A DNA stretch of 64,000 nucleotides from Clostridia bacterium. GTDB taxonomy: Bacteria; Bacillota; Clostridia; Oscillospirales; CAG-272. Positions 10,702-40,778 of the stretch are shown piece by piece (positions within the stretch are counted from its first letter, which is position 1; each line of letters begins with the position of its first letter). The DNA is taken from positions 8,489 to 72,488 of the forward strand of contig JAFTQL010000041.1 of NCBI GenBank assembly GCA_017462795.1. Reading direction: 5' to 3'. The notes under the pieces were generated by a model. That model ran no database searches. It saw only the letters and a list, made by a program, of their open reading frames with translations, and was not told the DNA's origin. Made by a program: the position numbers and the translations under genes.

Positions 10702-10839
10702 TCAGAGCGACAAGGGATCAAGCCTTATTATTCCGTCGGGAAGCTCTTCTCCCTCATAAGCGCCTGCCACTGACATCGTGATAACATCAAGTGCTTCAAG
10801 CACCAATACATTTGCGGTTGCTTTTTCATATTTTTTCAT
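10702..10839 (-). CDS. 45-aa acidic micro-protein (unannotated, locus A copy)
   Basis: ATG at 10839, TGA at 10702-10704, AAGAGG 7 nt upstream. Translation: MKKYEKATANVLVLEALDVITMSVAGAYEGEELPDGIIRLDPLSL. Resembles the 23643-23771 product. Confidence 0.5.
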   Translation of the reverse strand: MKKYEKATANVLVLEALDVITMSVAGAYEGEELPDGIIRLDPLSL

Positions 10840-10850
10840 ATTTATACCTC

Positions 10851-11201
10851 TTATTTCGGTTCTACGAGAGGACCATAGCCAAGGGTTGCATTTGCCGCCT
10901 CTTTTTTCAAATCTCCTGTTTTGGAGTCATCGGGTTGAACAGGGGCGGGATCAGTGTCACTGTCTGAAGGCTCGTCCGTTTCGTTGCTTGTTTCCGTGTT
11001 GGATTCTTCGTTATCATCGGTAGTTGTTATTGTGCTATCACCATCGGAGGTCGTTATTGTGTTATCACCATCGGAGGTCGTTATTACGCTGTCGCTGTCG
11101 GTCTCACTGTCGGAGGGAGCGTTTTTATTACATGCCGCTATTGCCAGCGCAAAACACAAAACGATGGAAACGATTATAAATAGCTTAAATGATCTTTTCA
11201 T
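10851..11201 (-). CDS. small Asp/Thr/Ser-rich lipoprotein with 9-aa tandem repeats
   Basis: Lipobox IAAC. Repeats ITTSDGDNT / ITTSDGDST / ITTTDDNEE. ATGA overlap with the upstream GLUG gene. Confidence 0.65.
   Translation of the reverse strand: MKRSFKLFIIVSIVLCFALAIAACNKNAPSDSETDSDSVITTSDGDNTITTSDGDSTITTTDDNEESNTETSNETDEPSDSDTDPAPVQPDDSKTGDLKKEAANATLGYGPLVEPK
11015..11095. repeat. 27-nt tandem repeat, three copies, in frame within the lipoprotein gene
   Basis: atcggtagttgttattgtgctatcacc / atcggaggtcgttattgtgttatcacc / atcggaggtcgttattacgctgtcgct. Confidence 0.8.
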
Positions 11202-13033
11202 GCGGCATCACCGTTATAGTCAAAGGTAAATCTGGAAATTTTATCATACGCTACCGCATTGTCTTTCACCAGATAGGGAATTACGTCTATGGTAATATCC
11301 GTAGCCGCCTCTGTTTTGGTAGCGCTCTTGTAGCCCTGGATCTCAGCGACGTAAAGATATTTTCCTCCAAGGGTCTCGGCGCTCACATCAAGTCCGTCAG
11401 CCTTAACGGATGTGTAGACAGTATCGGTCTCTCCCGAAACGCTCTTTACCACGGTATTTCCTTCTGCATCCTTATAGGTGAGGAATACAACAAATCCGAG
11501 CTTGTCACCGCTTTGTACCGTTGCTTCGTCAACCGCGGAAACAAGTCTTATGTCCATGCCGTCAGCTTCGCTGTACTTGGTCTGCGCGCGGTTTGCGGCT
11601 ACATTATATATATCCTCTGTCATAGCATTGCCACTCATATCGTAGTAACCTTCGCCGGACATGCAAAGACGTGCTTCTCTTCGTGCATCATAGGAAAACA
11701 GAGGCTGACCCTTGCTGTCGTTTACCGAAGCCTTGTTAATAACAATATTCAGTGATGTTCCATAAAGAGAAAGACTTGTTTTTGCGTTTTTAGTGGGTGC
11801 CAAATATCCTATCAAGGCATCTGCGGTATCGTTAGTAGCGCCTGAATCAACCGAAGTCAGTTCAGCGTTTATCTCACAGTTAACAACAGCAACTGTGTAT
11901 GAAAAATAGTAAAACTGACCGATAATTCCTCCGATTATACGCCCGGAGGATATTGCTCCTGTATAATCACAGTTGTTTAAGGTTTGTACCTTCGCAGTGT
12001 TGTTGGTCTCATTTACGAATCCCATAAAGCCACCGGCAACTGCATTTGTTACGCTTAAATTCAATGTTGCACTACAATCCTCAAAAGTATAATCACTATC
12101 CATGGCTCCGACAAAACCGCCGGAAAATATAGCCTTTACAGCCGATTTATCACTGTTGCCGCTTATTGCACCGGATATCTCACAGCCTTTTGCGTTTATT
12201 GCGGCGGTGGAATATCCGACCAATCCGGCAGTGTAAGAATTCTTTGCGGGGTTACCGTCATAGGCTACAGTGGCTTCAAAATTTGTAAGCTTGAAGTTTT
12301 CAATATTAAGAGTACCTACCGTTGTGCCCTTTACGTTCTGGAATACAGCGCCTGCAACTCCGTTAAGAGCTGTTACTTTCGTACCAGCTTTATTTATGGT
12401 TGCCTTAAAGCCGTTTACGGTAATGTTCTTTACCGTTGCTACTGTTTCAGAAATGTTATATCCGATAACGCCGCCAATCATACTTGCATCCGTAGAGGTA
12501 GTGGTAGCGGTAAGTGTATTTACAGTAATATCCTGAACAGTTGTATCCGTAGCGTATGCGGAAACTGCACCCATATAAATTGCCGCCGACTGCTCCTGAG
12601 CAGTGCTGAGCGTTACCTTATCCAAGGTGAGATTTTTAACTGTCGCGCCGTTACACTTAGCAAACAGACCCATGTAGGTTGCCTCGGTGGATACGGTAAG
12701 ATTGGAAACAGTTTTTCCGTTTCCGTCAAATGTTCCGTCAAAGGAATATTCGCCGTTAAGGCCGCCAACGGGTGTCCAAGTTACGCCTGCCATATCAACA
12801 GACGCGCCGAGTGTTACGGTTTTGCCGTCAAAGCTGTCCTGTGCAATGTCAGTTGCCGTTCCGCTGACAATCGCCGAAAAGCCAAGCAGATCGCCTGCGT
12901 CATTGAGTGTGAAGCTCTGTGAGGTCGTGTCATACCAGGAATAATCAGCCGCAGTTTCCGCAGCGTATATTGTGGGGACAAGCACGAAAATCATTGCAAA
13001 CGCGATCAGTGCCGAAAATAATCTTTTTTTCAT
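11198..13033 (-). CDS. secreted GLUG-motif beta-helix repeat protein (locus A copy)
   Basis: Signal peptide ending IYA-AE. FDGTFDGNGKTVSNL entry motif. Repeated GG(V/F/I)(I/V/M)G segments. C-terminal domain shared with the 21983-23626 product. Confidence 0.7.
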   Translation of the reverse strand: MKKRLFSALIAFAMIFVLVPTIYAAETAADYSWYDTTSQSFTLNDAGDLLGFSAIVSGTATDIAQDSFDGKTVTLGASVDMAGVTWTPVGGLNGEYSFDGTFDGNGKTVSNLTVSTEATYMGLFAKCNGATVKNLTLDKVTLSTAQEQSAAIYMGAVSAYATDTTVQDITVNTLTATTTSTDASMIGGVIGYNISETVATVKNITVNGFKATINKAGTKVTALNGVAGAVFQNVKGTTVGTLNIENFKLTNFEATVAYDGNPAKNSYTAGLVGYSTAAINAKGCEISGAISGNSDKSAVKAIFSGGFVGAMDSDYTFEDCSATLNLSVTNAVAGGFMGFVNETNNTAKVQTLNNCDYTGAISSGRIIGGIIGQFYYFSYTVAVVNCEINAELTSVDSGATNDTADALIGYLAPTKNAKTSLSLYGTSLNIVINKASVNDSKGQPLFSYDARREARLCMSGEGYYDMSGNAMTEDIYNVAANRAQTKYSEADGMDIRLVSAVDEATVQSGDKLGFVVFLTYKDAEGNTVVKSVSGETDTVYTSVKADGLDVSAETLGGKYLYVAEIQGYKSATKTEAATDITIDVIPYLVKDNAVAYDKISRFTFDYNGDAA

Positions 13034-13054: not shown

Positions 13055-14515
13055 TTAGTCTAATGCTGCGTATTGTGAATAGATTCCGTCAAGTATGCCG
13101 TTCATCGACGGAGCAAACTTTGCGAAATGGGATGCCGCGTCAGTGCCGCCATATGTATGCATGCAGAACATCTCCGTCTGATACTTATTTACAGTATAGT
13201 TGTGAGCGTATGTAACGTCCAGCATTATGCTCCTGTTAATAAGGTCGATGATCTCCATGTTTTCGGGAACCTGAACGTATTTTGTTTTCAAGGTATCCTC
13301 ATAGTACTCGGGTACAACATTGAGATAGCTCAGACAACCGTGCGCGTTGATTATATCAACGACCATATCGGCGTCGGAGGTGATCGGAATTACAAACATA
13401 CCTGCCGATGTTCCCATCTGAACGTAGTAATCGGTCTGTTCCTCATTATATTTGGGTTGAGGAAGTATAACGTAATCATCGCACAGGGTAGCAAGAGTTT
13501 CCGCGGTCTCAATTGTTTCATTAAGTATGATCGCGCGGTCAGCGGCAAAGATAGACGTTAAAGGAGAGATGTCGTTTGCCTTAAGGATATATGTGTCCTT
13601 GGGGTTGGTAACCAGTGTCTTGAATTTATCGACCGCGTCATAGTAACGCTGAGTCGCACCTTTATACACAAGCTTTCCTTCGCTTGATCTGTCTATCAGA
13701 TTAAGATCGAACGCGGTCTGGAATCCTCTCATGGTAACGTCCGATGATATAAAGCCATAGAAATCGACTTCAGTCATCTGTTCATCGCTGTTTATGTCCT
13801 CACCCTGTTCTCTTGTCAGCTTAAGGAAGTTTTCGAGTGTCCATTTGCCGCTGAGAACAAGCTCGACTGGATCGGTAAGCTTTCGCTGCTCAATAAGCGC
13901 CGTATTTGCGTACATAACGTATGTTCCCTTGTATACGGATAACATTGATGAACCGGTAACAGCATATAGCCTATCCGCTATCTGAAGGTTATTGTAAATA
14001 TCCGCCGACCACCAGGGGTTGCTGAAATCCATGCCCTCAAGAGAACCGTAATTGTAGAACTGACCTTCAATGGTCAGAGGCATTATAATTGATGTCATTC
14101 CGTTTACGAGCTGATATGCATCATCTTCTGCCATTATACTGTCACGAACAAGCGAAATAAACGTAGACTTGTTGGTCCAGTTGCCGGGTTCAGCCATATA
14201 GACAAGGTCAACGCCATAGGTGCTCTCAATTTGTATGTCGCGCTTATAGACCGCATCGTTGATCTTATCTCCGGTCAAGCCCTCCGCAAATTCATACGAT
14301 TGTTCCTTGGGCTGTAGAATAGTGAATGTGGCTCCGCCGTAGTTGTTTTTTGGAAGCTCTGCCCACCAATCGGTTCCATCAGCATCCGTGGAGACTGTAT
14401 TATTGTTGGAAGTATCCACGGGTGGAGTGTCGTCATTTGAACAAGCTACCAGTGTTCCCAGCAGAGTTAAGCAAGCAAGTCCTCCGCATAGGAATCTTGT
14501 GATTTTTTTGCGCAT
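13055..14515 (-). CDS. extracellular solute-binding-protein-like lipoprotein (orphan, locus A copy)
   Basis: Start set at the ATG at 14515, with GGAGG 8 nt upstream. Lipobox LVAC. About 490 aa, SBP family-1-like. Paralogous to 28388-29857. Confidence 0.75.
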   Translation of the reverse strand: MRKKITRFLCGGLACLTLLGTLVACSNDDTPPVDTSNNNTVSTDADGTDWWAELPKNNYGGATFTILQPKEQSYEFAEGLTGDKINDAVYKRDIQIESTYGVDLVYMAEPGNWTNKSTFISLVRDSIMAEDDAYQLVNGMTSIIMPLTIEGQFYNYGSLEGMDFSNPWWSADIYNNLQIADRLYAVTGSSMLSVYKGTYVMYANTALIEQRKLTDPVELVLSGKWTLENFLKLTREQGEDINSDEQMTEVDFYGFISSDVTMRGFQTAFDLNLIDRSSEGKLVYKGATQRYYDAVDKFKTLVTNPKDTYILKANDISPLTSIFAADRAIILNETIETAETLATLCDDYVILPQPKYNEEQTDYYVQMGTSAGMFVIPITSDADMVVDIINAHGCLSYLNVVPEYYEDTLKTKYVQVPENMEIIDLINRSIMLDVTYAHNYTVNKYQTEMFCMHTYGGTDAASHFAKFAPSMNGILDGIYSQYAALD

Positions 14516-14737
14516 AATTTTTTCCTCCATTAATAAATTTATTGCGGCAATTTGTGAAGATTGATGAATAAATCGCTTTTCTTCACACAAATATTATCGC
14601 ACATATTCCAAGCGATTTATATATAAAAAATTAGCATATTTTTGTAAAAATCGAGCATAATTGATATGGTGTTATTGATTTATCATCTGCTATGTGTTAT
14701 AATTACAGCACAAATTCGAGTGAAGGGGGATAAATAA

Positions 14738-20643: not shown

Positions 20644-21924
20644 ATGGACAAAAAAACGGTAAAATTCACTCCTCTCGTCATTGATGAGGATTTTGATGTA
20701 GTTGTTGTCGGAGGAGGTCTGGCGGGAGTCATGGCGTCGATATCCGCGGCGAGAGACGGAAGTAAGGTCATACTTATCGAGAAGCACGGATGTCTTGGCG
20801 GAATGGCGACGGCGGGACTTGTCTATCCCTTTATGAGAGATAGGGAATACGTCTCGGAAAATCCCGTTAACGCGGGACTCTATCTTGCAATGCAGGAGGA
20901 GATATACGCTATCGGCGGAAGTGAAGCGCCTCACTCCAGACATTATAAGGAAGAATTTATGAAGATAGCGCTTGACCGCATGGTGAGACGATACGGCATC
21001 AAGGTGCTGTTCCACGCAAAGCTTACAGACGTGGATATCACCGACGGCAAGGTCATGTCGGTCAAGGTGGCGACAGTATCGGGAAATATCAGCGTAAAGG
21101 GAAAGGTGTTCATTGACGCCACGGGAAATGCCGACCTTTGCGCGTTCGCGGGTCTGCCTTATCAGCTTGGGCGGGAGCAGGACTCCCTTTGCCAGCCCAT
21201 GACGCTCTGTTTTCGTCTTGGAAACGTGGACTGGAGCAGATATAACCGAGCCGAGGCAAACAAGCTGTACGCGCTGTGGAAGGAGCAGGGCAAGATACAG
21301 AATCCCAGAGAGGACATCCTTGTTTTCAAATATCCTGTCGGTAACATAATGCACATGAACACCACGCGTGTCGTTGGACTTGATCCCACCAATGTCGAGG
21401 ATGTTACATCGGCTGAGATAATGCTCCGCGAGCAGATGCTTGAGATGTACAATTTTATGCGGGAGAACATATCGGGACTTGAAAACTGCGAGCTGCTCAG
21501 CTCCGCGGCAGAGGCGGGGATCAGAGAGAGCCGCAGGATAGTGGGACTCACTCAGATAACGGCTGACGATATTCTCAATGTTACAAAGTTCCAGGACAGT
21601 ATTGCCAGAGGCGCTTATGAGATCGATATCCATTCGCCCGACGGCGCGGGAACCTTCCACGCGAGAATACCCGACAACGAGTATTACACCATTCCTTACA
21701 GATCCATGATCCCTGAGCATTCCGAAAATATAATAGCGGCGGGACGCTCTATCAGCACCACACACGAGGCGCTTGCGTCTGTGAGAATAATGCCCATCAC
21801 ATCGTGTATGGGAGAAGCTGCGGGAATTGCGGCATCCATGGCGGTAAAGACGGGCAAGGCTTGCCGCGATATAGACACAGACGCGCTCCGCGGCGAGATC
21901 ACAGCCTATGGCGGATTGGTGTGA
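20644..21924 (+). CDS. FAD-dependent oxidoreductase (locus B copy)
   Basis: DVVVVGGGLAGVMASISAARDG. C-terminal GRSISTTHEALASVRIMPITSCMGEAAG matches the locus A copy. Confidence 0.8.
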   Translation: MDKKTVKFTPLVIDEDFDVVVVGGGLAGVMASISAARDGSKVILIEKHGCLGGMATAGLVYPFMRDREYVSENPVNAGLYLAMQEEIYAIGGSEAPHSRHYKEEFMKIALDRMVRRYGIKVLFHAKLTDVDITDGKVMSVKVATVSGNISVKGKVFIDATGNADLCAFAGLPYQLGREQDSLCQPMTLCFRLGNVDWSRYNRAEANKLYALWKEQGKIQNPREDILVFKYPVGNIMHMNTTRVVGLDPTNVEDVTSAEIMLREQMLEMYNFMRENISGLENCELLSSAAEAGIRESRRIVGLTQITADDILNVTKFQDSIARGAYEIDIHSPDGAGTFHARIPDNEYYTIPYRSMIPEHSENIIAAGRSISTTHEALASVRIMPITSCMGEAAGIAASMAVKTGKACRDIDTDALRGEITAYGGLV

Positions 21925-21982
21925 CGTAATTAATATTGTAGGTATATAAAGAATATATATCAAAAAATTCAGGAGGTTTTTT

Positions 21983-23626
21983 ATGAAAAAAGCACTATCT
22001 TATCTTTTGGCGACTATCATGATCATCTCGGCCTTCGCAGTCATGCCTGCCACTGCGGCGGGTACAGCTCCCACAGCACCTGATAAAGAGGTGGTTGTCG
22101 GATATGACACGGGCAAGGTCCTTGAAGTAAGCGGACTTAAAGAGAAGGTGACCGCAACCACCCCCGGTACAACACCCATTCCTACTGTAATGGACTATTC
22201 CTTTACTTGCACGGAAGGCGGGAAATATACTATCAGCTCTCCCGAACAGCTTGGTATGTTCAGCAGAATGAGCAGAGTAACATCGAGTGATGGCAAGCAG
22301 AAGTGGACTTTTGAGGGCTGTACAGTTTATATCACTTGTGATATAGATATGTCCAAGCTTGAGGATAAAGGCGACGGAACATATTCTTATAACTTTTCGG
22401 GAATAGGAGAAGGCAACGGCTCGTCAGCAAAGCAGCTGTTCTTTGCGGGAACATTTGACGGTCAGGGCTATGTCATTGATAACTGGGAGATAGCCAACAG
22501 TTATCAGGGCTGCGGTTTCTTTAACTGTGTTGTGGATGCTACAATTAAGAATGTAGTTCTCGGCTCGGGTAATAAGGTTACCGCAAGCAATAATCAGATC
22601 GGTGGTCTTGTTGGATATGCACGTAAATCGAATACGGCATATGGTGTATCTATTGAGAATTGTCTTGTAATGTCAACTGTCGTAACAAACGGTAACAAAA
22701 ACCAGATGGGCGGTATCATAGGCGCTATGGCAGGGCCTGTAGATATCACCAACGTAACATTCGGCGGAAGCATAACGGGTGATAACCGTGTCGGCGGTAT
22801 AGTCGGAGCGGCAGGTCAGGTCACTACACTTACAAATTGCCTGATGAGCGGTACTGTTGTGGCAAATAATGCTTCTTCCACGTCATCGGATAAATTAACC
22901 ATAGGCGCGGGCGCTATTATAGGCTATCTGAATAATTCGGCGACCGTAAATAACTGTGTAAATGCGGGTACTGTAACATCCGCTAACGTGTCGGGTGTTA
23001 TTGCGGGAAGCATAAATGAATCGTCTGCCGCCAAGCTCACGGTAAACAGCGCCGTAAACTACAGCACATCGGTGACAGCCGCTTACGGTAAGCTCGGCGC
23101 AAACGCAACAGCCAATATAAGCGGATATACCGATCTTTCCACGGCTGACATCGGAAACGCCATCCGTGTAAATCCCGATCTTCCCATGGGACTTCGTTAT
23201 ACATCTGTTATTACCAAGGCGCAGATAGATGCGGCTAAGGCGCTTTCCAAGGACGGCACTGTCTCCTTCGGTACTATCATAGCTCCCAAGGATTACTTTG
23301 GCACAAACGAGGCATATACCGCCACAAACGCGGGTACATATCTGGATATTCCGGCGACCTCTATAGGCATGACCGAGAACGCTGACGGCAGTGTTACGCT
23401 CAAGGCGGCAATAACCGAGATCAAGGACGGCAATCTCAAGAGAGACTTCGTATTTGTTCCTTATATCTCTTATGAGGATGCCGACGGCAATACGGTATAC
23501 AGCTACGTATACACAACGGGCATCAAGAGCGCGAGAGCCGTTGCGGATCTGGCGCTTGCCGATACATCCGCAAGCTATTCCGACACCACGATCGCCCTTA
23601 TCAAGGAAAGATACGTTAAAGACTGA
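21983..23626 (+). CDS. secreted GLUG-motif beta-helix repeat protein (locus B copy 1)
   Basis: Signal peptide (..ATA-AG). FAGTFDGQGYVIDNW. IGGLVGY, MGGIIGA and VGGIVGA repeats. AGGAGG RBS. Confidence 0.7.
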   Translation: MKKALSYLLATIMIISAFAVMPATAAGTAPTAPDKEVVVGYDTGKVLEVSGLKEKVTATTPGTTPIPTVMDYSFTCTEGGKYTISSPEQLGMFSRMSRVTSSDGKQKWTFEGCTVYITCDIDMSKLEDKGDGTYSYNFSGIGEGNGSSAKQLFFAGTFDGQGYVIDNWEIANSYQGCGFFNCVVDATIKNVVLGSGNKVTASNNQIGGLVGYARKSNTAYGVSIENCLVMSTVVTNGNKNQMGGIIGAMAGPVDITNVTFGGSITGDNRVGGIVGAAGQVTTLTNCLMSGTVVANNASSTSSDKLTIGAGAIIGYLNNSATVNNCVNAGTVTSANVSGVIAGSINESSAAKLTVNSAVNYSTSVTAAYGKLGANATANISGYTDLSTADIGNAIRVNPDLPMGLRYTSVITKAQIDAAKALSKDGTVSFGTIIAPKDYFGTNEAYTATNAGTYLDIPATSIGMTENADGSVTLKAAITEIKDGNLKRDFVFVPYISYEDADGNTVYSYVYTTGIKSARAVADLALADTSASYSDTTIALIKERYVKD

Positions 23627-23642
23627 AAAGGAGGCAGAAAAA

Positions 23643-23771
23643 ATGAAGAAATTATATTCAACACCCGAATTTAAGGTTATATGTCTCAACACCGAGGACA
23701 TCATGTCGGCAAGCAGTACGCTTGAAGAGGATGATATCGGAGCGGATATCTTTGACGCTCTTTCTATCTGA
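23643..23771 (+). CDS. 42-aa acidic micro-protein (unannotated as such, locus B copy)
   Basis: AAGGAGG 8 nt upstream of the ATG at 23643. Translation: MKKLYSTPEFKVICLNTEDIMSASSTLEEDDIGADIFDALSI. It is the 3' part of track ORF 23454-23771, which otherwise overlaps the GLUG gene. Confidence 0.55.
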   Translation: MKKLYSTPEFKVICLNTEDIMSASSTLEEDDIGADIFDALSI

Positions 23772-23788
23772 TCCCCAAAGGTGAATAT

Positions 23789-25849
23789 ATGAAAACAGCG
23801 AAAAGCAGAATACTTAAATGCTTGTCCATTTTGCTGTGTGTTCTCATGATCGCTTCTCTCATCACCGCCTGCGGGGGTGATGAGAGTGGGGAGAACACCG
23901 GGAGCGGTGACAGCGGAACGGTAAGCGGTGAGCGTACAGTCGCCGTCATTATCCCCGCAAGCGCGTCGGACATAATAAATTCCGTGGCGGGCAAGGTAAA
24001 GACGCTTTGTGAGGACGCGGGATACACGGTGACTATGTATAATGAGTCCCAAACGGTAGCTAACGAGAGCTATCGCGTATATGTGGGTAACGTAAATACG
24101 GAGACATCGATCGCTCATCTTTCTGAGCTTGGCTCTTGCGGTTATGGGGTAAAGGCTGACAGAACGGGGGTATATCTGTCAGCCACCGCCGAGACACTTC
24201 TTGACCTCGCTTACGATATGCTTGAAAAGCAGGGGCTGCCCGCCGATTCTCTTACGGAGACGGTTAAGAGCGAAAACGCGGTATTCAGCGAATTTACTTA
24301 CATTATAAAGGATGCGGCAATGAGCATGACTGTCAGCGGAGATACATCTGTCAGCGGCATCTCGGGCGCGCTCAAGGAGCTTACCATGGGGCTGGCGGCA
24401 ACGCTGAAAAAGACTGTCACGTCGGAGAACGGTAACAACGGCGATCTCGTGCTCATGTCCACAAGCGCGGCAGTGGTAAAGGGAATAACCGACGACGCGA
24501 GATATAATGCCTACGGTATGTCCGTAAAGGACGGAAAAATATATATCTACGCAAACGATCAGGCGGGCTACAGCGCGGCAGTGACACGTTTCCTTGCCAT
24601 TGTCAAGGACATATCGGATTACAAGGACAGTCGCGCGTTGTTCTATCCTACGGAGCTAAGACTGTTGGAGGAAATAAACTCTGCAATACCTGCTTTACCG
24701 TTATATCCCGGTTCCACGGTGTATGATGAGGCTGTTGCGGAATCCTATACTATAAGCGCCGAGTCATCGGGCAAGCAGGCGTTTTACGATTACTGTACGG
24801 CTCTTGAGAATGACGGCTACAGGCTTGCCGAAGACCGAGCAAGAGACTGTACATACGAAAACAGTCCCTACACCTTTAAGAATATATATCGTACCTACAT
24901 AAACAGCCGATATATGGTGCATATGTACTTTATCGACTACACCAAGACGGTGAAGATAATAGGCGCTCCCATTTCGGAGTATGAGGCCGCGCAGCAATTG
25001 GTTGCAACCGAGGGGGACGGTGATACTGTATTCTCCATGCTGAAGATCAGCGGCGGACTCTGCATGGCTATAAAGCTTTCGGACGGCAGATTTATTGTCA
25101 TCGACAGCGGTAACTGGAGTCTGTCCGATACAAGGGCGGCTGATATAGTCAAGCTCCACGACTTCCTCGCGGAGAATTCTCCTGACGGCAAGATACACAT
25201 AGCCGCATGGATATTCACTCATGTTCATGTGGATCACGTAAATGCCGCATGGAAGTTTGAGGACATGTACGGTGATGAGGTTATCATAGAGCGTTATATG
25301 CACAACTTTGTTGACTATGACTTTCTGCTATCCGTTCCCGATACAGACCTTAGCAAGGCGACATATGATATAGTCTATCCCCGAACGCTTGAGATGCTTT
25401 CGAGATACGATAATGTTATTATGCACACAGGACAGGTCTACAATATCGGAAATATCACCATCGACGTTTTGTATACACATGAGGACTTCTATCCTCAGCC
25501 GTTGAAGATAGTAAATAACTCCTCAACCGTAATGCAGATAACGGTCGAGGGCAATACCTTCCTTATCGCGGGCGACCTTGAGGAGGACGGACAGCAGGTG
25601 GCGGTAAGCATGAATGGATACGCGTTAGCGTCCGATTTCGTTCAGATGACACACCACAGCTATAACGGACTTCTTGAATATTACAAATACGCGTCAAGCA
25701 AGGAGTATACTGTGGTACTGCTTCCCAACGATAATATGAAGCAGCCTACGTCTACCGTCGCCTGCAATCAGTGGCTGTTGAGCAAGGCAAATGAGTTTTA
25801 CAGCACATATACGGGGCATCATCATTTCACCATGCCACACGTAAAGTGA
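23789..25849 (+). CDS. lipoprotein with C-terminal metallo-beta-lactamase-fold domain (locus B copy)
   Basis: Lipobox ITAC. WIFTHVHVDHVNA (HxHxDH). Later QMTHHSYNG. Confidence 0.75.
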   Translation: MKTAKSRILKCLSILLCVLMIASLITACGGDESGENTGSGDSGTVSGERTVAVIIPASASDIINSVAGKVKTLCEDAGYTVTMYNESQTVANESYRVYVGNVNTETSIAHLSELGSCGYGVKADRTGVYLSATAETLLDLAYDMLEKQGLPADSLTETVKSENAVFSEFTYIIKDAAMSMTVSGDTSVSGISGALKELTMGLAATLKKTVTSENGNNGDLVLMSTSAAVVKGITDDARYNAYGMSVKDGKIYIYANDQAGYSAAVTRFLAIVKDISDYKDSRALFYPTELRLLEEINSAIPALPLYPGSTVYDEAVAESYTISAESSGKQAFYDYCTALENDGYRLAEDRARDCTYENSPYTFKNIYRTYINSRYMVHMYFIDYTKTVKIIGAPISEYEAAQQLVATEGDGDTVFSMLKISGGLCMAIKLSDGRFIVIDSGNWSLSDTRAADIVKLHDFLAENSPDGKIHIAAWIFTHVHVDHVNAAWKFEDMYGDEVIIERYMHNFVDYDFLLSVPDTDLSKATYDIVYPRTLEMLSRYDNVIMHTGQVYNIGNITIDVLYTHEDFYPQPLKIVNNSSTVMQITVEGNTFLIAGDLEEDGQQVAVSMNGYALASDFVQMTHHSYNGLLEYYKYASSKEYTVVLLPNDNMKQPTSTVACNQWLLSKANEFYSTYTGHHHFTMPHVK

Positions 25850-25901
25850 ATCTCGCCGCAAGAGGCGTTGATCAAATAAAACACACAGAAAGGATTTTAT
25901 C

Positions 25902-27338
25902 ATGAAAAAGTTTATTTCCCTTATTACTGTACTTACACTGTTGGCAGCAGCCATTGCGCTTACGCTCTCCGCGTTCGCGGGACCCGAGAACATTGTGGGA
26001 TACAGCGCTCAGCGTGTTGAGAAGAAGGATCTGACAAATGTGACCGACATCATGGATTACGCCACCAAGTCCAATGAGACCGAATACAAGATATCGGATA
26101 TTGACGGTTGGCACGAGCTTGAGTATTGGGTAAACGACCAGAACAAGACCTTCAAGGGCGTTACCGTATATCTTGCTGACAATATCTATCCCGAGACTAA
26201 CGAGATAATTTACGGTCTTGGTAAGACGACCTCAAAACCCACCACTCACTATTATTTCGCGGGTACGTTTGACGGACAGGGCTATACTATTGAAAATGTT
26301 ACCGTTCAGATGAGAACTACCTCAAACGGCGGTGGTATCATCGGATTTGTAAAGGGTGCTACCGTAAAGAACCTTATCGTTGGCGAGAATGTTAAAATGA
26401 ACTTCAAGAATTCGCAGTCCGCGGCAATAGTCGGCCGTGTAGACGACGCCGATCCCGTGGTCATCGACAACTGCTGGAACAAAGCAAGCGTTACTTTTGA
26501 TTCTACCATGAACGGAGGTATCGTCGGTTGTACCACAAACGCTGACGGTAATGTCACTGTTTCCAACTGTACAAACTCCGGTAAGATAACCTCTCAGGAA
26601 AGAGTGGGCGGTATCGTTGGACGTTCCGCTTCCAACATAACCATCAAGAACTGTCTCAACACGGGCGAGGTTATCGCCACCGATGTCAAGACGGTAGAGC
26701 AGTGGAAGGAAAGTAACAATCAGACTACATCCGCAGGTGAAACAGTGGCGCGAAAGATGGGTGTTGCCGGTATCCTTGCGGAGACCACAAAGAGTGCGGC
26801 GGAGACTGTAGTTGAGGGTTGTATCAACACAGGTAAGATCACAGGTAGCAAGGTGATTGCGGGAATCGTAGGCTTCAACCCTGTTGGCGGCGGCGCAACG
26901 GTTAAGAATTGCGCGAACTACGGTGTTCTCAATCTTCTCCAGACAAGCGGATACAAGGGACAGATCATCGGACATTCCAATGAACCGGCCAATATTCAGT
27001 CCGACAACTCCATGCTTGAGGGTCAGACATGGACACCCGCAGAGACCGATCCTCCCGCCGATCCCATTCAGCCCAACAGACCCGAGGCGGATACTGATCC
27101 CATAACTCCCGATACCGATCCTGTCGTTCCGGACACTGATCCTGTTCCCGAGGATACCAAGGGATCGGATAACAGCAACGGTACATCTGCGTCCGACAAC
27201 GCGGGCAGTGAAGAGGAGACAACAGGCTCTGATGACGGAGGATGTGGCTCCGCTCTCGCAGGCTCCGCTCTTGCGATAGTAGGTGTCATTTCCCTCGCGA
27301 CAGTTCTTCTGAAGAGAAGAAAAGACGAAATTAACTGA
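25902..27338 (+). CDS. GLUG-motif beta-helix protein with Pro/Asp-rich stalk and C-terminal membrane-anchor/sorting-like tail (locus B copy 2)
   Basis: Signal peptide. FAGTFDGQGYTIENV. GGIIGF, GGIVGC, GGIVGR and AGIVGF repeats. Tail is GGCGSALAGSALAIVGVISLATVLLKRRKDEIN. Confidence 0.7.
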   Translation: MKKFISLITVLTLLAAAIALTLSAFAGPENIVGYSAQRVEKKDLTNVTDIMDYATKSNETEYKISDIDGWHELEYWVNDQNKTFKGVTVYLADNIYPETNEIIYGLGKTTSKPTTHYYFAGTFDGQGYTIENVTVQMRTTSNGGGIIGFVKGATVKNLIVGENVKMNFKNSQSAAIVGRVDDADPVVIDNCWNKASVTFDSTMNGGIVGCTTNADGNVTVSNCTNSGKITSQERVGGIVGRSASNITIKNCLNTGEVIATDVKTVEQWKESNNQTTSAGETVARKMGVAGILAETTKSAAETVVEGCINTGKITGSKVIAGIVGFNPVGGGATVKNCANYGVLNLLQTSGYKGQIIGHSNEPANIQSDNSMLEGQTWTPAETDPPADPIQPNRPEADTDPITPDTDPVVPDTDPVPEDTKGSDNSNGTSASDNAGSEEETTGSDDGGCGSALAGSALAIVGVISLATVLLKRRKDEIN

Positions 27339-27349
27339 ATCAAAACCAA

Positions 27350-27384
27350 AATATCCTTACGGAGCGAAGCTCCGTAAGGATATT
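27350..27384. terminator. bidirectional terminator hairpin between convergent genes
   Basis: Perfect 16-bp stem aatatccttacggagc / gctccgtaaggatatt with a 3-nt loop. Confidence 0.65.
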
Positions 27385-28245: not shown

Positions 28246-28387
28246 TACGTGCCTCCTATGCTTGGTTTTACTTATATTAGTTTATCACAAAAGCGAAAAA
28301 TTATCAATCCCATAATTGTAATTTGGTTAAAAATACAACAAACAAAAAATGATATGGATAAAACACAACAACACGAAAGGAAAGTTT

Positions 28388-29857
28388 ATGAAAATAACGG
28401 TAAGAATACTTTCATTGCTCCTGTCGCTGCTCGTGCTTGCGGGAGTACTCATATCCTGCGGTGAGGATGACGGTGACTCCAAGGATACGGGCAATTCCGT
28501 ATCTACGGGCGACCTGACAGCTGAGCTTGACGTTGGCAGAGAGGACAACGGCGGAAAGGATATAAGAATACTGTACAATAAAAATACCGCGACTTACGAT
28601 GTTTTCAAAGAACTCAGCACAGACAGTGTAGGCTCGGCAATGTTCAGCCGCGACATGACGGTTGAGGATCATCTGGGCATAAATCTTGATTATTACATTG
28701 AGGATGGTTCATGGAACCAGAGGCAGGAGTTTAACCAGAAGATACAGGCAAGCGCGCAGGCAGGGGCTGAATACGATTATGACATAGTGTTCGCCCATCC
28801 CTCTTGCTCGCTTGTAAACAACGCGTCCATGAACTGCTTTAAGAACATGTACGATTATTCCGACATCATTTCATTTGACAAGGTCTGGTGGCTTACGGGC
28901 ATGGACGATTACGCTATCAACAATACTCTGTTCTGCGTATTCGGCGATGCCACTCTCAGTACCTACAACCAGATGGCGGTGGTATATTTCAATCAGCAGA
29001 TACTTGCTAACGAGGGACTTACCTCTCCCTATGAATTGGTCAGAAATAACCAGTGGACATATGAGAGATTGTTCGCTGACGCGCTGAAGATCAGCGGCGA
29101 CCTTGACGGTGACGGACAGATAAGCTATCTGACGGATATAGTCGGATATGTTCAGGCGTCTACTCCCGCGCGCGGATGGCTGTCATCCCTTGAGCTTGAC
29201 CTTGTGCAGAAGAACTCCGACGGAACACTTACCGTTGGTGAATCTGCTCCGGAAAAGCTCATTGATGTGTACGATAAGCTTTACGCATTCTTTTCCAACA
29301 ACAATAATATTGTAAGCGGCAGCGGAGATGAGCTTCAAGCCACCTTTACCGACGGCAGATGCCTTTATCTGCTGAGCACTCTTGCCGATATAGATTACTT
29401 CTCCTTCGGAGCTATGGAGGATGACTGGGGAATAATTCCCATGCCAAAGTACAGCACCGAGCAAAATGACTATATCACACCCGTGGGTACGTCCGTGGCT
29501 ATGATGGCTATCATGAACAATGTGTCTGATGGCGAGCTTTGCGCAAAGGTGCTTGAGTGCATGTCGTATTTTGCCAATAAGATGGTCGTTGACGAATACT
29601 ATGTAAAGACACTCGGCGAGCGCCGCGCGAGGGACGAGAATGTGGCGGGAATGCTTGACATTATCCGCAAAGGCTCAAAGCTTACCTTTGTAGCCGTATA
29701 TCAGGATTCATTTACCACACCCATATACAATCTTCTCCAGATGGACGAGAAGTGGAGAAACGAGAAGGTGGGGGCAAGTGTTGCTTCTTATTGGAGGAGC
29801 AATTACAGAAGCTGGCGCGGAAATCTTACCGAGCTTCAGCAGCTTGGCAAGGGTTAA
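28388..29857 (+). CDS. extracellular solute-binding-protein-like lipoprotein (orphan, locus B copy)
   Basis: Start set at the ATG at 28388 (MKITVRILS...). Lipobox LISC. Paralogous to 13055-14515. Confidence 0.75.
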   Translation: MKITVRILSLLLSLLVLAGVLISCGEDDGDSKDTGNSVSTGDLTAELDVGREDNGGKDIRILYNKNTATYDVFKELSTDSVGSAMFSRDMTVEDHLGINLDYYIEDGSWNQRQEFNQKIQASAQAGAEYDYDIVFAHPSCSLVNNASMNCFKNMYDYSDIISFDKVWWLTGMDDYAINNTLFCVFGDATLSTYNQMAVVYFNQQILANEGLTSPYELVRNNQWTYERLFADALKISGDLDGDGQISYLTDIVGYVQASTPARGWLSSLELDLVQKNSDGTLTVGESAPEKLIDVYDKLYAFFSNNNNIVSGSGDELQATFTDGRCLYLLSTLADIDYFSFGAMEDDWGIIPMPKYSTEQNDYITPVGTSVAMMAIMNNVSDGELCAKVLECMSYFANKMVVDEYYVKTLGERRARDENVAGMLDIIRKGSKLTFVAVYQDSFTTPIYNLLQMDEKWRNEKVGASVASYWRSNYRSWRGNLTELQQLGKG

Positions 29858-29961: not shown

Positions 29962-32904
29962 ATGAAATGCTATTTTGGAGAAGTTCATTCACATACCACA
30001 GAGTCCGACGGTAAGGGAGGCTCGCCGAGAGACGCTTATGTGTACGCGAGAGACATTGGTAAAGCCGATTATTTCGCTGTTACCGACCACAATACCCATC
30101 TCAGGGAAGAAAACTATATCCCGCTTGTGCGCTCTCTTTCCGATGAATTCAGTGAGGACGGACGCTATGCCGCGCTTTATGGATATGAGATGAGCTATGA
30201 TGCCGCCTCGGGCTTTTACGGACACCTCAATATACTGGGGTCGCATAACATTGAGGGTACGGATGTCAAGCTGAGAGATTGGTATGATATGCTCCGTCAA
30301 AGGAGAGAGGATATCATCGGTCAGTTCAACCATCCGGGCGAAAAATGGGGAGATTTCGAGGAGTTCCGATATGATGAGGACATGGCAAGGGTATTCAGGC
30401 TTATTGAGCTTCGCATAGAGGAATACGGCGTGCCCGTCATAGAGACGGAGTACGAAAGATGCCTGTCAAAGGGTTGGCATGTGGGTCCTGTGAGCAATGA
30501 GGATACTCACGGACGGGACTGGACGACCTGCCGTGAGGAAACGGGAGCGGTGTTGGCTGAGTCGCTGAGCCGTGAGGACATTGCGGACGCAATGCGAAAA
30601 AATCGGACATACGCCACAAGCGACCGCTCACTTAAAGTATTCTACCGAGCCAACGGAGAGTGGATAGGCTCAACACTGCAAAAGACAGGGCGGCTTTATA
30701 TTGAGGCGGATATGACAACGGAGAAGGAATGCGGTCTTGGTATAGTCCAGGCGGTGGGAGAGCACAATACCGTGCTTGCGCAGATCGATCTCGGCAATGA
30801 GAAGAGCTATGTCTGGCATCTTTGTATTCCCGACAGTCACAGGTACGTTTATATTCGCAGACACTGCGGTCTTGAGTATGCTGTGACCGCGCCTGTGTGG
30901 GTGGAACAGCCCGATGCCTTTGATCTGGATGTTGAATTTGGATTTGATACTTACGGCGTTCGTGTCGAGGGGAAGCTTAAGAATATCTCGGATACCGCTC
31001 TTACGGATATACGTGCTTATGCGTATGTCGGAAGCTCAAGGCTTGTGGAGGGCATTCCTCTTGATATAGGCATATGTCGGCTTTCGGCGGGAGAGACGGC
31101 GGACGTGAGCTTGTCCTTGGACTTTGATTATCTCATGAATGATGTTGTGATAGAGATATGCGCTGATATGGGCGGACTTCCCGTGAGGGTATCAAAGAAA
31201 ATGCATACCTGTCCGCTTACCGTTGATAAGATATTTCCATCCACGACGAGATATTCGGCGCAGCGCTATTACGGTCATCCCTTCTTCTGTGTTGACATAC
31301 GTAATCTTTCCCCTTTACCCGTGGATGCCTCAGCGTATACCTTCCGCTTTTATCACCACGTCGGTATTGCATATGAGGACTTTTTTATTGACAGGATTAT
31401 CGGCGGAGGGGAGACAGTGACTGTGTGGTTTCGCTCCGATCGCCTGCTTGACGAAAAAGACTTTAACCAATACTTTGACACCGACCTTGTGGAGGGCAGG
31501 GAGCTTATATCCGTTCCTGTCAGCATAAAAAGCGGAAAGGAGCTTTGCAGAAAGTTGTTGATATGCAGAGGAAATAACACCGCGCGCAGAGCGTGGATAA
31601 GATATTCAGAGCTTCAGAATACGCACATTCCCGTTGGAAGCGCTATCGGTTACTCTGCCATGCCCGGAAGCGCTACCGCAAAGGTCACAGGTATCTATGA
31701 CGATGCCGTGCCGCACGTGTGCGGTGATGATGGGAGCATACCTGCATTTAAGGATATTGCCAAGAGGCGGACGGCACTTCCGGGAAAGAACAGACAGCTT
31801 GGCAAGGTGGTCTGCTTTGCTGACGGTAAAGAGGACGAAAAAGCCCTTCTTGACGGCATAAGCAGAATTGGAGATGCGGACAGTGTGGAGCTCGTATGGG
31901 GTTCAAATGAGAATGAGCGTACCGACGCTTATATTAAAAGAGAGGGAGATCGCCTGCTTCGTGCCATCGCCGGGAGCGATGCGGATACGGTGGCTTTGTG
32001 TCTTGGCGGCAGAGATTGCGGTGTGGGACAGCATTTGTGGCTGGAGCGCAATTTTCTGTCCCTTGCCACACTGCTTGAAGGGATGTGTCTGTATATGTCG
32101 GCATTGGGCAAAAGGACGGTGCTTATCAGCCCATCAACGGGCAGAGAGTATACTGCCGACTACGCAAGATTGCAAAGAACGCTGGCAACCGTGGCTGATA
32201 CTGTAGGATGCATGACAGACGTTGACAAAAGATCACTTATTCCCGTGTCGGTCAAGGCTTCCGATATACCCGAGGATATAAAGCCCGTTGACGGTGCGCT
32301 TAAGATAGCTTGTATAGGCGACGGATATACAGGCGGCGGTGGGGGAATAACACCCTATCCCACAAATCTGCAATGTCTTTTCGGAGATCGTGCCGATGTG
32401 CGTATATTCTCTGCCGAGGGCGCTATTGCCGCTGAGGGCAGCAATCTGAATTTCAATATTTGCGCGGGAGAGATGTTGAGTGAAATGGAGCGCTTTGACC
32501 CCGACGCGGTGGTTTTGTGGCTTTGTATGACAGACCTTAAAATAAAGAACTGTCGAGAGTGGGATACCTTCAGAGAGAGGTATATGAGCGGATTCCTGAA
32601 GGTTGTTGAGAATCTCGCAAGAAAGGTAAAAAAACGGACGAGGCTTTATGTGATATCCGCTTTCCGACGTAGACCCGATGACATCCGTGTTGAGGTGGCA
32701 ATGAGAGCGGGAGACGGACTGGCGGCTACGGTAAGAGAGCTTGCGGAAAGAGTCGGAGCGGAGCACATCGATATCATGGAGGCAAGCGTTGAGAATCCGG
32801 AATTGATTGCGGTGGGTAGAAATAAAGTAAATTATCTGAGTGAAGCGGGCAGTATGTATCTCGCTCAGGCTGTATACCGTGAGATTGCCAAGCTAATGAA
32901 ATGA
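29962..32904 (+). CDS. large cytoplasmic multidomain protein: N-terminal PHP-family metallohydrolase (CehA/McbA-like) plus C-terminal SGNH-like domain(s)
   Basis: GEVHSHTTESDG, AVTDHN, QFNHPG and NEDTHG (PHP metal ligands). C-terminal IACIGDGYTGGGG follows an SGNH-like layout. AAAGGAG RBS. Confidence 0.65.
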   Translation: MKCYFGEVHSHTTESDGKGGSPRDAYVYARDIGKADYFAVTDHNTHLREENYIPLVRSLSDEFSEDGRYAALYGYEMSYDAASGFYGHLNILGSHNIEGTDVKLRDWYDMLRQRREDIIGQFNHPGEKWGDFEEFRYDEDMARVFRLIELRIEEYGVPVIETEYERCLSKGWHVGPVSNEDTHGRDWTTCREETGAVLAESLSREDIADAMRKNRTYATSDRSLKVFYRANGEWIGSTLQKTGRLYIEADMTTEKECGLGIVQAVGEHNTVLAQIDLGNEKSYVWHLCIPDSHRYVYIRRHCGLEYAVTAPVWVEQPDAFDLDVEFGFDTYGVRVEGKLKNISDTALTDIRAYAYVGSSRLVEGIPLDIGICRLSAGETADVSLSLDFDYLMNDVVIEICADMGGLPVRVSKKMHTCPLTVDKIFPSTTRYSAQRYYGHPFFCVDIRNLSPLPVDASAYTFRFYHHVGIAYEDFFIDRIIGGGETVTVWFRSDRLLDEKDFNQYFDTDLVEGRELISVPVSIKSGKELCRKLLICRGNNTARRAWIRYSELQNTHIPVGSAIGYSAMPGSATAKVTGIYDDAVPHVCGDDGSIPAFKDIAKRRTALPGKNRQLGKVVCFADGKEDEKALLDGISRIGDADSVELVWGSNENERTDAYIKREGDRLLRAIAGSDADTVALCLGGRDCGVGQHLWLERNFLSLATLLEGMCLYMSALGKRTVLISPSTGREYTADYARLQRTLATVADTVGCMTDVDKRSLIPVSVKASDIPEDIKPVDGALKIACIGDGYTGGGGGITPYPTNLQCLFGDRADVRIFSAEGAIAAEGSNLNFNICAGEMLSEMERFDPDAVVLWLCMTDLKIKNCREWDTFRERYMSGFLKVVENLARKVKKRTRLYVISAFRRRPDDIRVEVAMRAGDGLAATVRELAERVGAEHIDIMEASVENPELIAVGRNKVNYLSEAGSMYLAQAVYREIAKLMK

Positions 32905-39985: not shown

Positions 39986-40029
39986 GCTGTCATCTTCCTT
40001 TCCGTATTAACAATATCAATAAGATGTGA

Positions 40030-40767: not shown

Positions 40768-40778
40768 TTTTGAACTCC

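Follow-up and report, generated by a model that had tools for sequence, protein, structure and literature searches.

The cofactor precursor PqqA is bound by PqqD. In lasso and linear polyphosphorylated peptide (LPP) leaders, the element bound by the RiPP recognition element (RRE; RiPP, a peptide made on ribosomes and modified after its translation) was defined crystallographically as [Y/W]xxPx[L/V/I/F/A]: Tyr/Trp, Pro and Leu/Val fill pockets of the RRE, a winged helix-turn-helix (wHTH) domain, and the residues that follow extend its beta-sheet (PMC13381572; PMC10368454). The lasso motif, YxxPxL, stands at leader positions -17 to -12. LPP precursors (Popov et al. 2026, Nat Commun, PMC13381572) have 35-200 amino acids (aa), an N-terminus of the form YxxPxVLxHQxIxFETxxS and highly variable C-termini. 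Their leader is cut after Thr-1 by an SpI/SipW-like peptidase and Ser3 is polyphosphorylated by an HprK-like kinase; their clusters are embedded in polysaccharide loci and were found mostly in Bacillota, in a search begun in Bacilli genomes (PMC13381572). The subject of this report is peptide B, the product of a 42-codon gene in a 64 000-nucleotide stretch of a Clostridia bacterium contig (GenBank assembly GCA_017462795.1, JAFTQL010000041.1, positions 8489 to 72 488), referred to below as the window. Peptide B carries an RRE-type leader motif (Y5-S-T-P8-E-F10). Its gene is judged, from the family profile, to be a genuine small gene of a large, previously unmodelled family.

Peptide B and its family

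The coding sequence starts with an ATG at 23643 and ends with a TGA at 23769-23771. It encodes MKKLYSTPEFKVICLNTEDIMSASSTLEEDDIGADIFDALSI, a product of 42 aa with nine acidic and three basic residues, one Cys and no hydrophobic segment. The positions of the ribosome-binding site (RBS), start and stop and the composition of the product had been given correctly in a first-pass annotation made from the sequence. That annotation had also pointed out that the list of open reading frames (ORFs) hides the gene, and the only frame listed at this place is indeed a longer in-frame TTG ORF (23454-23771) overlapping the 3' end of the GLUG-like gene 21983-23626. The ATG lies 16 nt past the upstream stop codon, and 17 nt separate the TGA from the downstream lipoprotein gene. 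A copy of peptide B with 98% identity was found on an independent 853-bp ENA contig, where the RBS spacer and the downstream sequence are identical. Comparison with close relatives gave one non-synonymous and no synonymous difference. The exact sequence was not returned from a collection of 15 billion proteins, which yielded the 98% variant only; annotation of the source assembly thus appears to have passed over the gene.

A matching micro-ORF had been reported in a second, paralogous locus of the window (locus A), after a small lipoprotein gene. It was found there on the minus strand (peptide A, 45 aa, 10702-10839), 11 nt past the lipoprotein gene, and its exact sequence is present in NCBI as 'MAG: hypothetical protein IJY08_04365 [Clostridia bacterium]'. 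The match between the two peptides stood at the level of a profile but hardly in direct comparison. The pairwise Smith-Waterman score of A and B was 29, a value reached by 3% of shuffles (p = 0.03), and a tblastn search of the window with peptide B did not recover peptide A. A family hidden Markov model (HMM) built without A, B and their nearest relatives gave 52-54 bits for B and 43-45 bits for A, far above the shuffled controls (2000 for each peptide, at most 11 bits); this leave-out model is partly circular, as its members were found with a profile containing A and B. About 84 sequences other than A, B and their close relatives support the consensus. Judged at the profile level, A and B are homologous; their kinship rests on the family profile, since the direct similarity is only marginal.

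The search for relatives was started from 80 genome loci anchored on the FAD (flavin adenine dinucleotide) oxidoreductase and 80 metagenome loci anchored on the GLUG-like protein, whose small ORFs were scanned with the A and B HMMs. Relatives were found in loci L002, L004, L083 and L159, and in none besides among the matches listed. A word-indexed search with six sequences (A, B and the peptides of these four loci) returned 14 proteins. HMMER was then run exhaustively over 1.84 billion cluster representatives with an 11-sequence profile (E <= 1e-3) and returned at least 110 clusters (50% identity), all of 32-97 aa and mostly of 35-60 aa. Homologues elsewhere, which the first-pass annotation had proposed to look for along with the shuffled controls, are thus plentiful. 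Family matches begin at residue 1-12 in all but one of 110 (a 68-aa call with a match start at residue 21); in the few that start later (residues 7-21), the called ORF is extended upstream. Were matches to a 50-position profile due to chance, most of them would be expected within long proteins, so the pattern of small proteins matched at the N-terminus shows by itself that the family is genuine. With matches beginning at or a few residues from the called N-terminus, initiation at ATG 23643 was also borne out. Scores pile up at the E-value threshold, which indicates that the true family is larger, probably much larger. When the family HMM was run over 47,887 small ORFs (1.75 Mb of loci), only true members were found at E < 1.

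Hosts of the family are Bacillota and Bacteroidota, and most members are metagenome gene calls. A GGAGG/AAGGAG-type RBS precedes the start in most Bacillota members examined. Across the family, AGC and four TCN codons are used for the conserved Ser, four codons for Pro and both available codons for Tyr. This variety of codons for the conserved Ser and Pro argues for selection at the amino-acid level. No model in Pfam, NCBIfam or PHROG covers A, B or 92 relatives, apart from a partial lasso_cyano motif match. A PDB sequence search with the family profile returned nothing relevant, a literature search by sequence motif strings gave no relevant paper, and the supplements of the Sberro et al. preprint contained nothing.

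The ORF might instead be spurious: it could be a frame open by chance in the spacer between two genes, or no more than the end of the longer 23454-23771 frame. That the 15-billion-protein collection returned only the 98% variant could be read in this sense. Against it stand the strong RBS, the profile score of B compared with that of its shuffles, the 110 clusters aligned nearly all from the N-terminus and the codon evidence, which favours selection on the protein; in addition, an Rfam scan of the 64-kb window found no RNA family. The spurious reading is hardly credible and has already effectively been refuted by the family evidence.

The family alignment (A5) gave the consensus M-K-K-x-Y-x-x-P-x-Φ-x-V-V-x-Φ-x-x-x-D-V-I-(T/A)-(T/A)-S, about 24 residues long. 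The alignment of further members, also proposed at the outset as a way to define invariant positions, showed Y5 to be invariant and M1, K2, K3 and S24 to be present in at least 90%; Pro is the consensus residue at Tyr+3 (at least 50% of members). In peptide B this leader-like segment holds Tyr5, Pro8, Phe10, Asp19-Ile20-Met21 and the nearly invariant Ser24. Its residues 1-24 are charged or polar and have no hydrophobic stretch, unlike a Sec or lipoprotein signal peptide. The tail that follows has 8-37 residues (median 19.5). Among 92 members, mean pairwise identity is 43% in the leader versus 24.5% in the tail. Asp and Glu together make up 24% of the tail and 14% of the leader, Lys and Arg 4% and 11%, respectively, and Cys is rare in the tail (0.3%). 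The net charge of the tail is -4 on average and negative in 89/92, and an aromatic residue lies within the last five tail positions in 71/92.

At the junction, position -1 is Ser in 88/92 and position -3 is Thr or Ala in 67/92. If cleavage after Ser24 is assumed, position -2 is Thr in 33/92 and Ala in 30/92, and the first tail residue is most commonly Gly (29/92); peptide B has Ala at -2 and Ser at 1. Two tail sub-types were recognized. The B type, DD(I/V)xxD(I/V)F, is common to B, P0016, P0039 and P0105 and occurs in looser form in P0003 and P0017. The A type, G(D/E)xLPxG(I/V)I..(D/E)P, is common to A, the L002 peptide and P0054. An AlphaFold2 model of peptide B (92-sequence alignment) had a mean predicted local distance difference test score (pLDDT) of 78.7, with an extended N-terminus without secondary structure (pLDDT 83-86) and a helix at residues 32-40. 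The first 33 residues of P0006 and P0008 are the same as those of P0003 and then diverge; these two look like frameshifted assemblies or alleles. The organism encoding P0003 is abundant in the gut, with 255 collection blocks listed.

Comparison with described leader peptides

Peptide B could be a lasso or LPP precursor of the canonical kind, with its biosynthetic genes located beyond the window. The comparison with both families makes this very improbable. With LPP (LppA) the present family shares small precursors with a conserved N-terminus and highly variable C-termini, an RRE-binding motif (YxxPx(V/L) in LPP, YxxPxΦ here), an acidic residue at Tyr+14 and a conserved Ser, which in LPP is the phosphorylated one and stands at Tyr+18, and here at Tyr+19. 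With its small residues at -3 and -1, the junction is compatible with a leader peptidase of the signal peptidase I type, and the genes of both families lie in polysaccharide-related loci, LPP clusters being embedded in them. However, the HQ and FET positions of LPP are not conserved here and its full consensus is not matched. An SpI-like peptidase, a stand-alone RRE, a kinase like HprK, an NTP transferase and an exporter like MsbA were all absent from the window and from the neighbourhoods of other members that were read, which number about a dozen or more (>12) and are independent. The present family reaches Bacteroidota, whereas LPPs are mostly from Bacillota, and its loci degrade or use glycans and do not synthesize capsule, with a large exported protein as the constant neighbour.

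Lasso precursors share with the family the N-terminal motif MKKxYxxPxL, the leader-plus-core layout and tails with Asp/Glu and bulky C-terminal residues, and Gly is the commonest first tail residue here. The NCBIfam lasso peptide model NF033528 matched 10/92 members weakly, at 12-15 bits, far under the curated cutoff of 33. In the five of these matches printed per residue, residues 1-9 to 1-12 were aligned, with the motif MKKxYxxPxL, to model positions 1-12. Neither A nor B matched this or any other lasso model (E <= 1). Lasso precursors have Thr (or Ile/Val) at -2 and, to form the macrolactam ring, Gly/Ala/Ser/Cys at position 1 and Asp/Glu at 7-9; an acidic residue at tail position 7-9 is almost automatic in such acidic tails. 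The family has no Thr at Tyr+15, the site of lasso Thr-2, and its spacing is unlike that of either family. Many members, A and B included, lack Thr at -2 and Gly at position 1; tails of 8-37 aa and first residues other than Gly are common. No B1 (RRE)/B2 protease or Asn-synthetase-like cyclase (C) was found in the window or in the >12 other neighbourhoods, nor was any other core biosynthetic gene of the two families found in these neighbourhoods.

In PqqA and other RRE-dependent precursors, as here, an aromatic-x-x-Pro-x-hydrophobic element is followed by an acidic/Val/Thr-like cluster about 14-16 residues later, and PqqA is likewise a very small peptide without an export signal. Its core, that of a cofactor precursor, is strictly conserved (Glu, Tyr), whereas the tail here is hypervariable, and no PqqE- or PqqD-like genes are present here. 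Double-glycine-leader substrates of C39 peptidase-containing ATP-binding cassette transporters (PCATs) also have a conserved leader of about 24 residues before a variable payload, and one lineage of the family (P0003) has a PCAT gene 8 kb away. Unlike theirs, however, the junction is (T/A)(T/A)S and not GG, GA or GS, the hydrophobic register (-4, -7, -12, -15) is only partly kept, the payload is acidic and not cationic, and no PCAT was found in the other contexts.

Membership of the lasso or LPP family is not supported by these sequence comparisons, because HQ and FET are missing, the family ranges into Bacteroidota, its neighbours are exported proteins and the core genes were not found. By analogy, a mode of recognition similar to that of lasso and LPP leaders is plausible. 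The peptides are rated as apparently of a known kind, that of leader-bearing precursor-type peptides with a Y-x-x-P motif, and this family of them as new.

Neighbouring genes and possible functions

In the neighbourhoods read, the peptide gene adjoins, in the same orientation and usually on the downstream side, a gene whose product is a large exported protein of a glycan locus. All complete upstream neighbours on the same strand carry a signal peptide or lipobox; in L185, where a recombinase gene lies upstream, the downstream neighbour has one instead. Gaps to the upstream gene elsewhere in the family range from -4 to 59 nt, and such short or overlapping gaps suggest translational coupling. 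What stays constant is a large neighbour with a signal peptide, whose domains vary (GLUG beta-helix, PL4 lyase, CBM32/NPCBM, leucine-rich repeat [LRR]).

The coupling to an anchor-less GLUG-type secreted protein, which is seen in both loci of the window, recurs in L002, L083/L162-165 and L159/L166. The gene order in L002 is solute-binding protein (SBP)-like lipoprotein, anchored GLUG-like protein, anchor-less GLUG-like protein and, after an 11-nt gap, peptide. In L083 and L162-165 it is AraC regulator, beta-lactamase-family protein, GH4, 501-aa protein, GLUG-like protein of about 500 aa, 848-aa GLUG-like protein, peptide (overlapping stop) and EamA. In L159 and L166 the peptide follows a 1707-aa protein and a 797-aa GLUG-like cargo of the type IX secretion system (T9SS). 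L170 has a DeoR regulator, a 578-aa secreted protein, the peptide, a 399-aa protein, a glycoside hydrolase (GH), a glycyl-radical enzyme and a GH36-like gene; the C-terminal half of the 578-aa protein matches the 547-aa protein encoded upstream of peptide B. The C-terminal domain of the latter recurs in other neighbours of the peptide, upstream in L170 and L163 and downstream in L004, where the peptide stands between a 390-aa lipoprotein and a 751-aa secreted protein. In L179 two GH123 genes and genes for proteins of 945 and 932 aa precede the peptide, and genes for an 898-aa protein and GH94 follow it.

L183, a Bacteroidota contig, has two peptides (6595-6723 and 10001-10183) in tandem gene pairs, each 18-27 nt past the gene of a cargo ending in a T9SS C-terminal domain; the cargoes are a 520-aa protein and a 1074-aa PL4 rhamnogalacturonan lyase. 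In L180 the peptide (10001-10135) follows the gene of a secreted 595-aa protein and is followed by small phage-like head/tail structural genes up to about 14200 (Phage_Gp15 match), which may mark a prophage boundary; no PHROG model matches the peptide family itself. In L185 (4509-4889) the peptide has its own promoter of the TTGACA-17-TATAAT type, with a serine recombinase gene upstream and the gene of a secreted LRR protein downstream. L191 (MT839594.1, 'Bacteriophage sp.', unverified) has a GTG-start member at about 2518-2667 (VRKTFLEPELEVVRFGTEDIITTSF...), in which Phe replaces the otherwise invariant Tyr, after the gene of an 823-aa CBM32/NPCBM/Big_2 protein. A 156-aa ORF after it (2750-3220) has a GDSMEPM motif reminiscent of S24/S26 peptidases. 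Such a peptidase was rejected as a recurrent neighbour, as this single ORF has no Pfam match and no homologue beside other members. A divergent member, MKENSIETYEAPKVEIIEVEVEKGFATSGGGENGNWTD, was found in an isolate genome of Phocaeicola massiliensis (L190, plasmid OY725995.1, 5980-6096), between the genes of an S41/PDZ C-terminal-processing-peptidase lipoprotein and, downstream, a 1089-aa lipoprotein. PDZ proteases read C-terminal residues, and the tails of the family usually end aromatic.

Three candidates for a common partner were tried and rejected. A single adjacent domain does not accompany all peptides, the two groups of adjacent domains (A6 and A7) being unrelated (hhalign probability 0.1%). 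The GLUG-like protein is not a universal partner either, as the peptide was found in only 2/80 metagenome loci among the matches listed, all of them distant homologues. The third was the FAD oxidoreductase, alone as an anchor or in a module with the metallo-beta-lactamase (MBL)-fold protein; the peptide is present in only 2/80 homologous genome loci.

This bears on the reading that a local RiPP-like module exists, with the peptide as its substrate and the FAD oxidoreductase and MBL-fold hydrolase of the operon as tailoring enzymes. The oxidoreductase (PF12831), an MBL-fold lipoprotein, a GLUG-like protein and a peptide are present in both loci of the window, and locus B seems to be one transcription unit. 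The first-pass annotation had regarded the peptide as a component of a module with the GLUG, FAD oxidoreductase and MBL genes, a view that failed outside the window. The other 78/80 loci anchored on oxidoreductase homologues have no family peptide, no MBL homologue was detected in L002, the closest relative locus, and no MBL-fold or PF12831-type FAD-oxidoreductase gene was found in the called contexts L162-166, L170, L179, L180 and L183. Both MBL proteins are lipoproteins and should therefore sit outside the cell, whereas the peptide has no export signal. The loci themselves look glycan-utilizing (AraC, SBP-like lipoprotein, GH20, GH94, GH2, TIM barrel, GDSL). The link of the peptide to the FAD oxidoreductase and MBL genes is lineage-local, and the local-module reading is improbable.

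The reading tentatively favoured, with less than even confidence, is that the peptide is a leader-plus-core substrate, with a partner that docks and processes it and has its gene elsewhere in the genome. The extended N-terminal segment would dock by beta-strand addition, through its Tyr-x-x-Pro-x-hydrophobic 'knobs', to this partner, an adaptor or a processing enzyme of the RRE-like (PqqD/wHTH) type. The junction around Ser24 would be the site of cleavage and/or modification, and the acidic tail would be a lineage-specific payload, perhaps a signal, a cofactor-like compound or a binding partner, made in step with the adjacent secreted protein because of a proposed single shared transcript. The extended, unstructured N-terminus, modelled with fairly high pLDDT, is as expected for a strand that needs a partner.

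Several points weigh against this proposal. No RRE/PqqD, lasso B/C, SpI/SipW-like, HprK-like, YcaO or lanthipeptide gene was found in the window or the >12 neighbourhoods, and a scan of the large ORFs of the window found no radical SAM, YcaO, lanthipeptide, lasso, PqqD/RRE, S26-peptidase, HprK-like or C39-transporter domain. Radical SAM genes are represented nearby only by that of the activase of the glycyl-radical enzyme in L170, and the only C39 exporter is the one 8 kb away in a single lineage. A and B match no lasso model and other members reach only 12-15 bits against the cutoff of 33. The spacing from Tyr to the junction is that of neither lasso (Thr-2 at Tyr+15) nor LPP (Ser at Tyr+18), and A-type members (A, L002) have Ala, not Pro, at Tyr+3. 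Moreover, a trans-acting maturase is unusual for RiPPs, and a RiPP model does not account for the constant position next to exported proteins.

The main rival is a cytoplasmic micro-protein serving the neighbouring exported protein or its locus: it could target or hold that protein ahead of export, or provide a stoichiometric read-out with feedback to the locus regulator (AraC/DeoR). Its N-terminal strand would bind a conserved cellular machine, and the tail would need only to be acidic and aromatic-ended. The signal peptide or lipobox on every complete same-strand upstream neighbour (on the downstream one in L185), a synteny found in both Gram-positive (Sec) and Bacteroidota (T9SS cargo) lineages, the short or overlapping gaps with the coupling they suggest and the lack of maturase genes nearby all fit this role. 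The peptide has no signal peptide or transmembrane segment and would be cytoplasmic by default. Tail and neighbour also vary together, B-type tails being paired with the A6 domain and A-type tails with that of A_611/L002_578, but co-inheritance as a cassette can explain this. The neighbours are otherwise unrelated, as the comparison of the two adjacent-domain groups showed. The presence of a peptide in only 2/80 GLUG-anchored loci among the matches listed indicates that such proteins are not generally in need of one, and the variation of the tail in length and sequence is atypical for a stoichiometric binding partner. The cytoplasmic role explains better the invariant synteny in two envelope types and the missing maturases, and explains poorly the hypervariable tail and the heterogeneous neighbours. 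It is regarded as rather unlikely. The rest of the probability, beyond the readings named, is reserved for other functions.

With a docked leader and a payload as the preferred reading, a wider proposal can be considered, which is possible but on the doubtful side: these peptides may be previously unrecognized, cross-phylum 'orphan' leader peptides, hard-wired to the transcripts of large exported glycan-binding or -degrading proteins. An RRE-type system, shared and encoded in trans, would process them, or else they would represent a new kind of cytoplasmic partner of exported proteins. An acidic peptide with a sequence of its own would be given off by each glycan locus, for instance to serve as a signal or cofactor specific to that locus. 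If this is true, a small peptide largely missed by gene callers and family databases exists in at least 110 clusters in gut and rumen anaerobes from two phyla. It would have the hallmark of RiPP or pheromone precursors (docking leader, hypervariable payload) without a local maturase, and would be wired to secreted polysaccharide-handling proteins. The Y-x-x-P recognition code would then reach past the lasso and LPP pathways, the peptides would be concrete candidates for signals or cofactors tied to glycan foraging, and alignment A5 would provide annotators with a ready HMM for a missing gene family. Should the peptide turn out to be a cytoplasmic helper, it would instead be a new kind of accessory factor common to Gram-positive and T9SS-using bacteria.

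Loci A and B in the window

The G+C content of the window is about 47%. An all-against-all BLAST of its large ORFs revealed two paralogous gene sets, loci A and B (Table 1). From their gene content, both look like glycan-utilization loci.

Table 1. Features of loci A and B, in positions of the window
Feature	Position	Strand	Evidence or remark
Peptide B gene, 42 codons + TGA	23643..23771	+	Translation; 98%-identical copy on independent contig; leave-out family HMM 52-54 bits
Shine-Dalgarno AAGGAGG	23628..23634	+	8 nt before ATG, 1 nt past stop codon of upstream gene; read from sequence
Conserved leader-like segment of peptide B, residues 1-24 (MKKLYSTPEFKVICLNTEDIMSAS)	23643..23714	+	Family alignment A5
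Variable acidic tail of peptide B, residues 25-42 (STLEEDDIGADIFDALSI)	23715..23768	+	'B-type' motif DD(I/V)xxD(I/V)F
FAD-dependent oxidoreductase (PF12831), first gene of presumed operon	20644..21924	+	Pfam E = 1e-117; 43% identical to locus-A paralogue
Secreted 547-aa GLUG-type beta-helix protein, upstream of peptide B	21983..23626	+	Signal peptide, C-terminal beta-sandwich, no membrane anchor
686-aa lipoprotein, MBL-fold (ComEC-like)	23789..25849	+	Pfam PF00753, weak NCBIfam ComEC matches, lipobox
478-aa GLUG-like paralogue, last gene of presumed operon	25902..27338	+	C-terminal GGC + transmembrane helix + basic tail
Hairpin, 16-bp stem	27350..27384	.	Only strong terminator-like site in region; ends presumed unit 20644-27338
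Peptide A, paralogous member, 45 aa, MKKYEKATANVLVLEALDVITMSVAGAYEGEELPDGIIRLDPLSL	10702..10839	-	Leave-out HMM 43-45 bits; 11 nt past 116-aa lipoprotein gene
Locus-A anchor-less GLUG-like protein, 611 aa	11198..13033	-	Upstream of peptide A
116-aa repeat-rich lipoprotein	10851..11201	-	Between locus-A GLUG-like gene and peptide A

Locus B, on the plus strand, consists of the genes for the FAD oxidoreductase, the 547-aa GLUG-like protein, peptide B, the MBL-fold lipoprotein and the 478-aa GLUG-like protein with its C-terminal membrane anchor. No terminator-like site comparable in strength to the hairpin of Table 1 was found between the GLUG-like, peptide and MBL genes or anywhere before 27350, and the stretch 20644-27338 appears, on this prediction, to be a single transcription unit. 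The hairpin lies between the convergent genes of the 478-aa GLUG-like protein and an AraC regulator and is likely to be a bidirectional terminator. Beyond the unit lie this AraC gene and those for a 502-aa lipoprotein, a 980-aa GDSL-containing protein, GH94 and GH2. Locus A, on the minus strand, begins with genes for a 511-aa lipoprotein, the 611-aa GLUG-like protein, the 116-aa lipoprotein and peptide A. After the latter come a PF12831 FAD oxidoreductase, a xylose-isomerase-like TIM barrel, an MBL-fold lipoprotein and GH20, with a divergent AraC regulator gene.

The 547-aa protein upstream of peptide B had no Pfam match and no PDB sequence match. Its AlphaFold2 model had a mean pLDDT of 55, with 75-87 in the beta-helix core and a weak CBM21-like C-terminal sandwich. 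In a Foldseek search the best matches of the model were beta-helices of the IgA1-protease type (3n6z, E = 5e-4; 7uvk; 6xja). As the model is of low confidence overall, only the beta-helix core, and hence the match to this fold, is usable; the match supports the label 'GLUG-type' at the fold level.

The GLUG-like paralogues occur in two forms, with or without a C-terminal segment of the type 'GGC + hydrophobic helix + KRR/KRRK', which could be a membrane anchor or sorting signal. The 25902-27338 product has it, and those of 21983-23626 and 11198-13033 do not. In the window and L002 (L002:1725-3218, L002:3292-5028) the peptide follows the anchor-less form only. The anchored protein (25902-27338) matched none of the NCBIfam sorting-signal models.

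The 116-aa lipoprotein (10851-11201) has tandem ITTSDGD(N/S)T repeats and an acidic low-complexity body, with no family assignment. Lipoproteins of about 500 aa are encoded at 13055-14590 (-), 28349-29857 (+) and L002:198-1688, and a protein of about 501 aa in L162-165. They recur with GLUG-like genes and an AraC regulator and resemble divergent SBPs, with no match in Pfam, NCBIfam or PDB sequences. The 980-aa protein (29962-32904, +) has no signal peptide; its N-terminal region is weakly DUF3604-like and its C-terminal domain a GDSL lipase/acylhydrolase, and its gene is placed between that of the SBP-like lipoprotein and GH94. The glycan-utilization loci are flanked, at 39272-41624 (-) and 1402-4019 (+), by capsule/exopolysaccharide-type genes, namely CpsB/CapC phosphatase, ParA-like tyrosine-kinase ATPase and Wzz, and by two GT8 glycosyltransferase genes.

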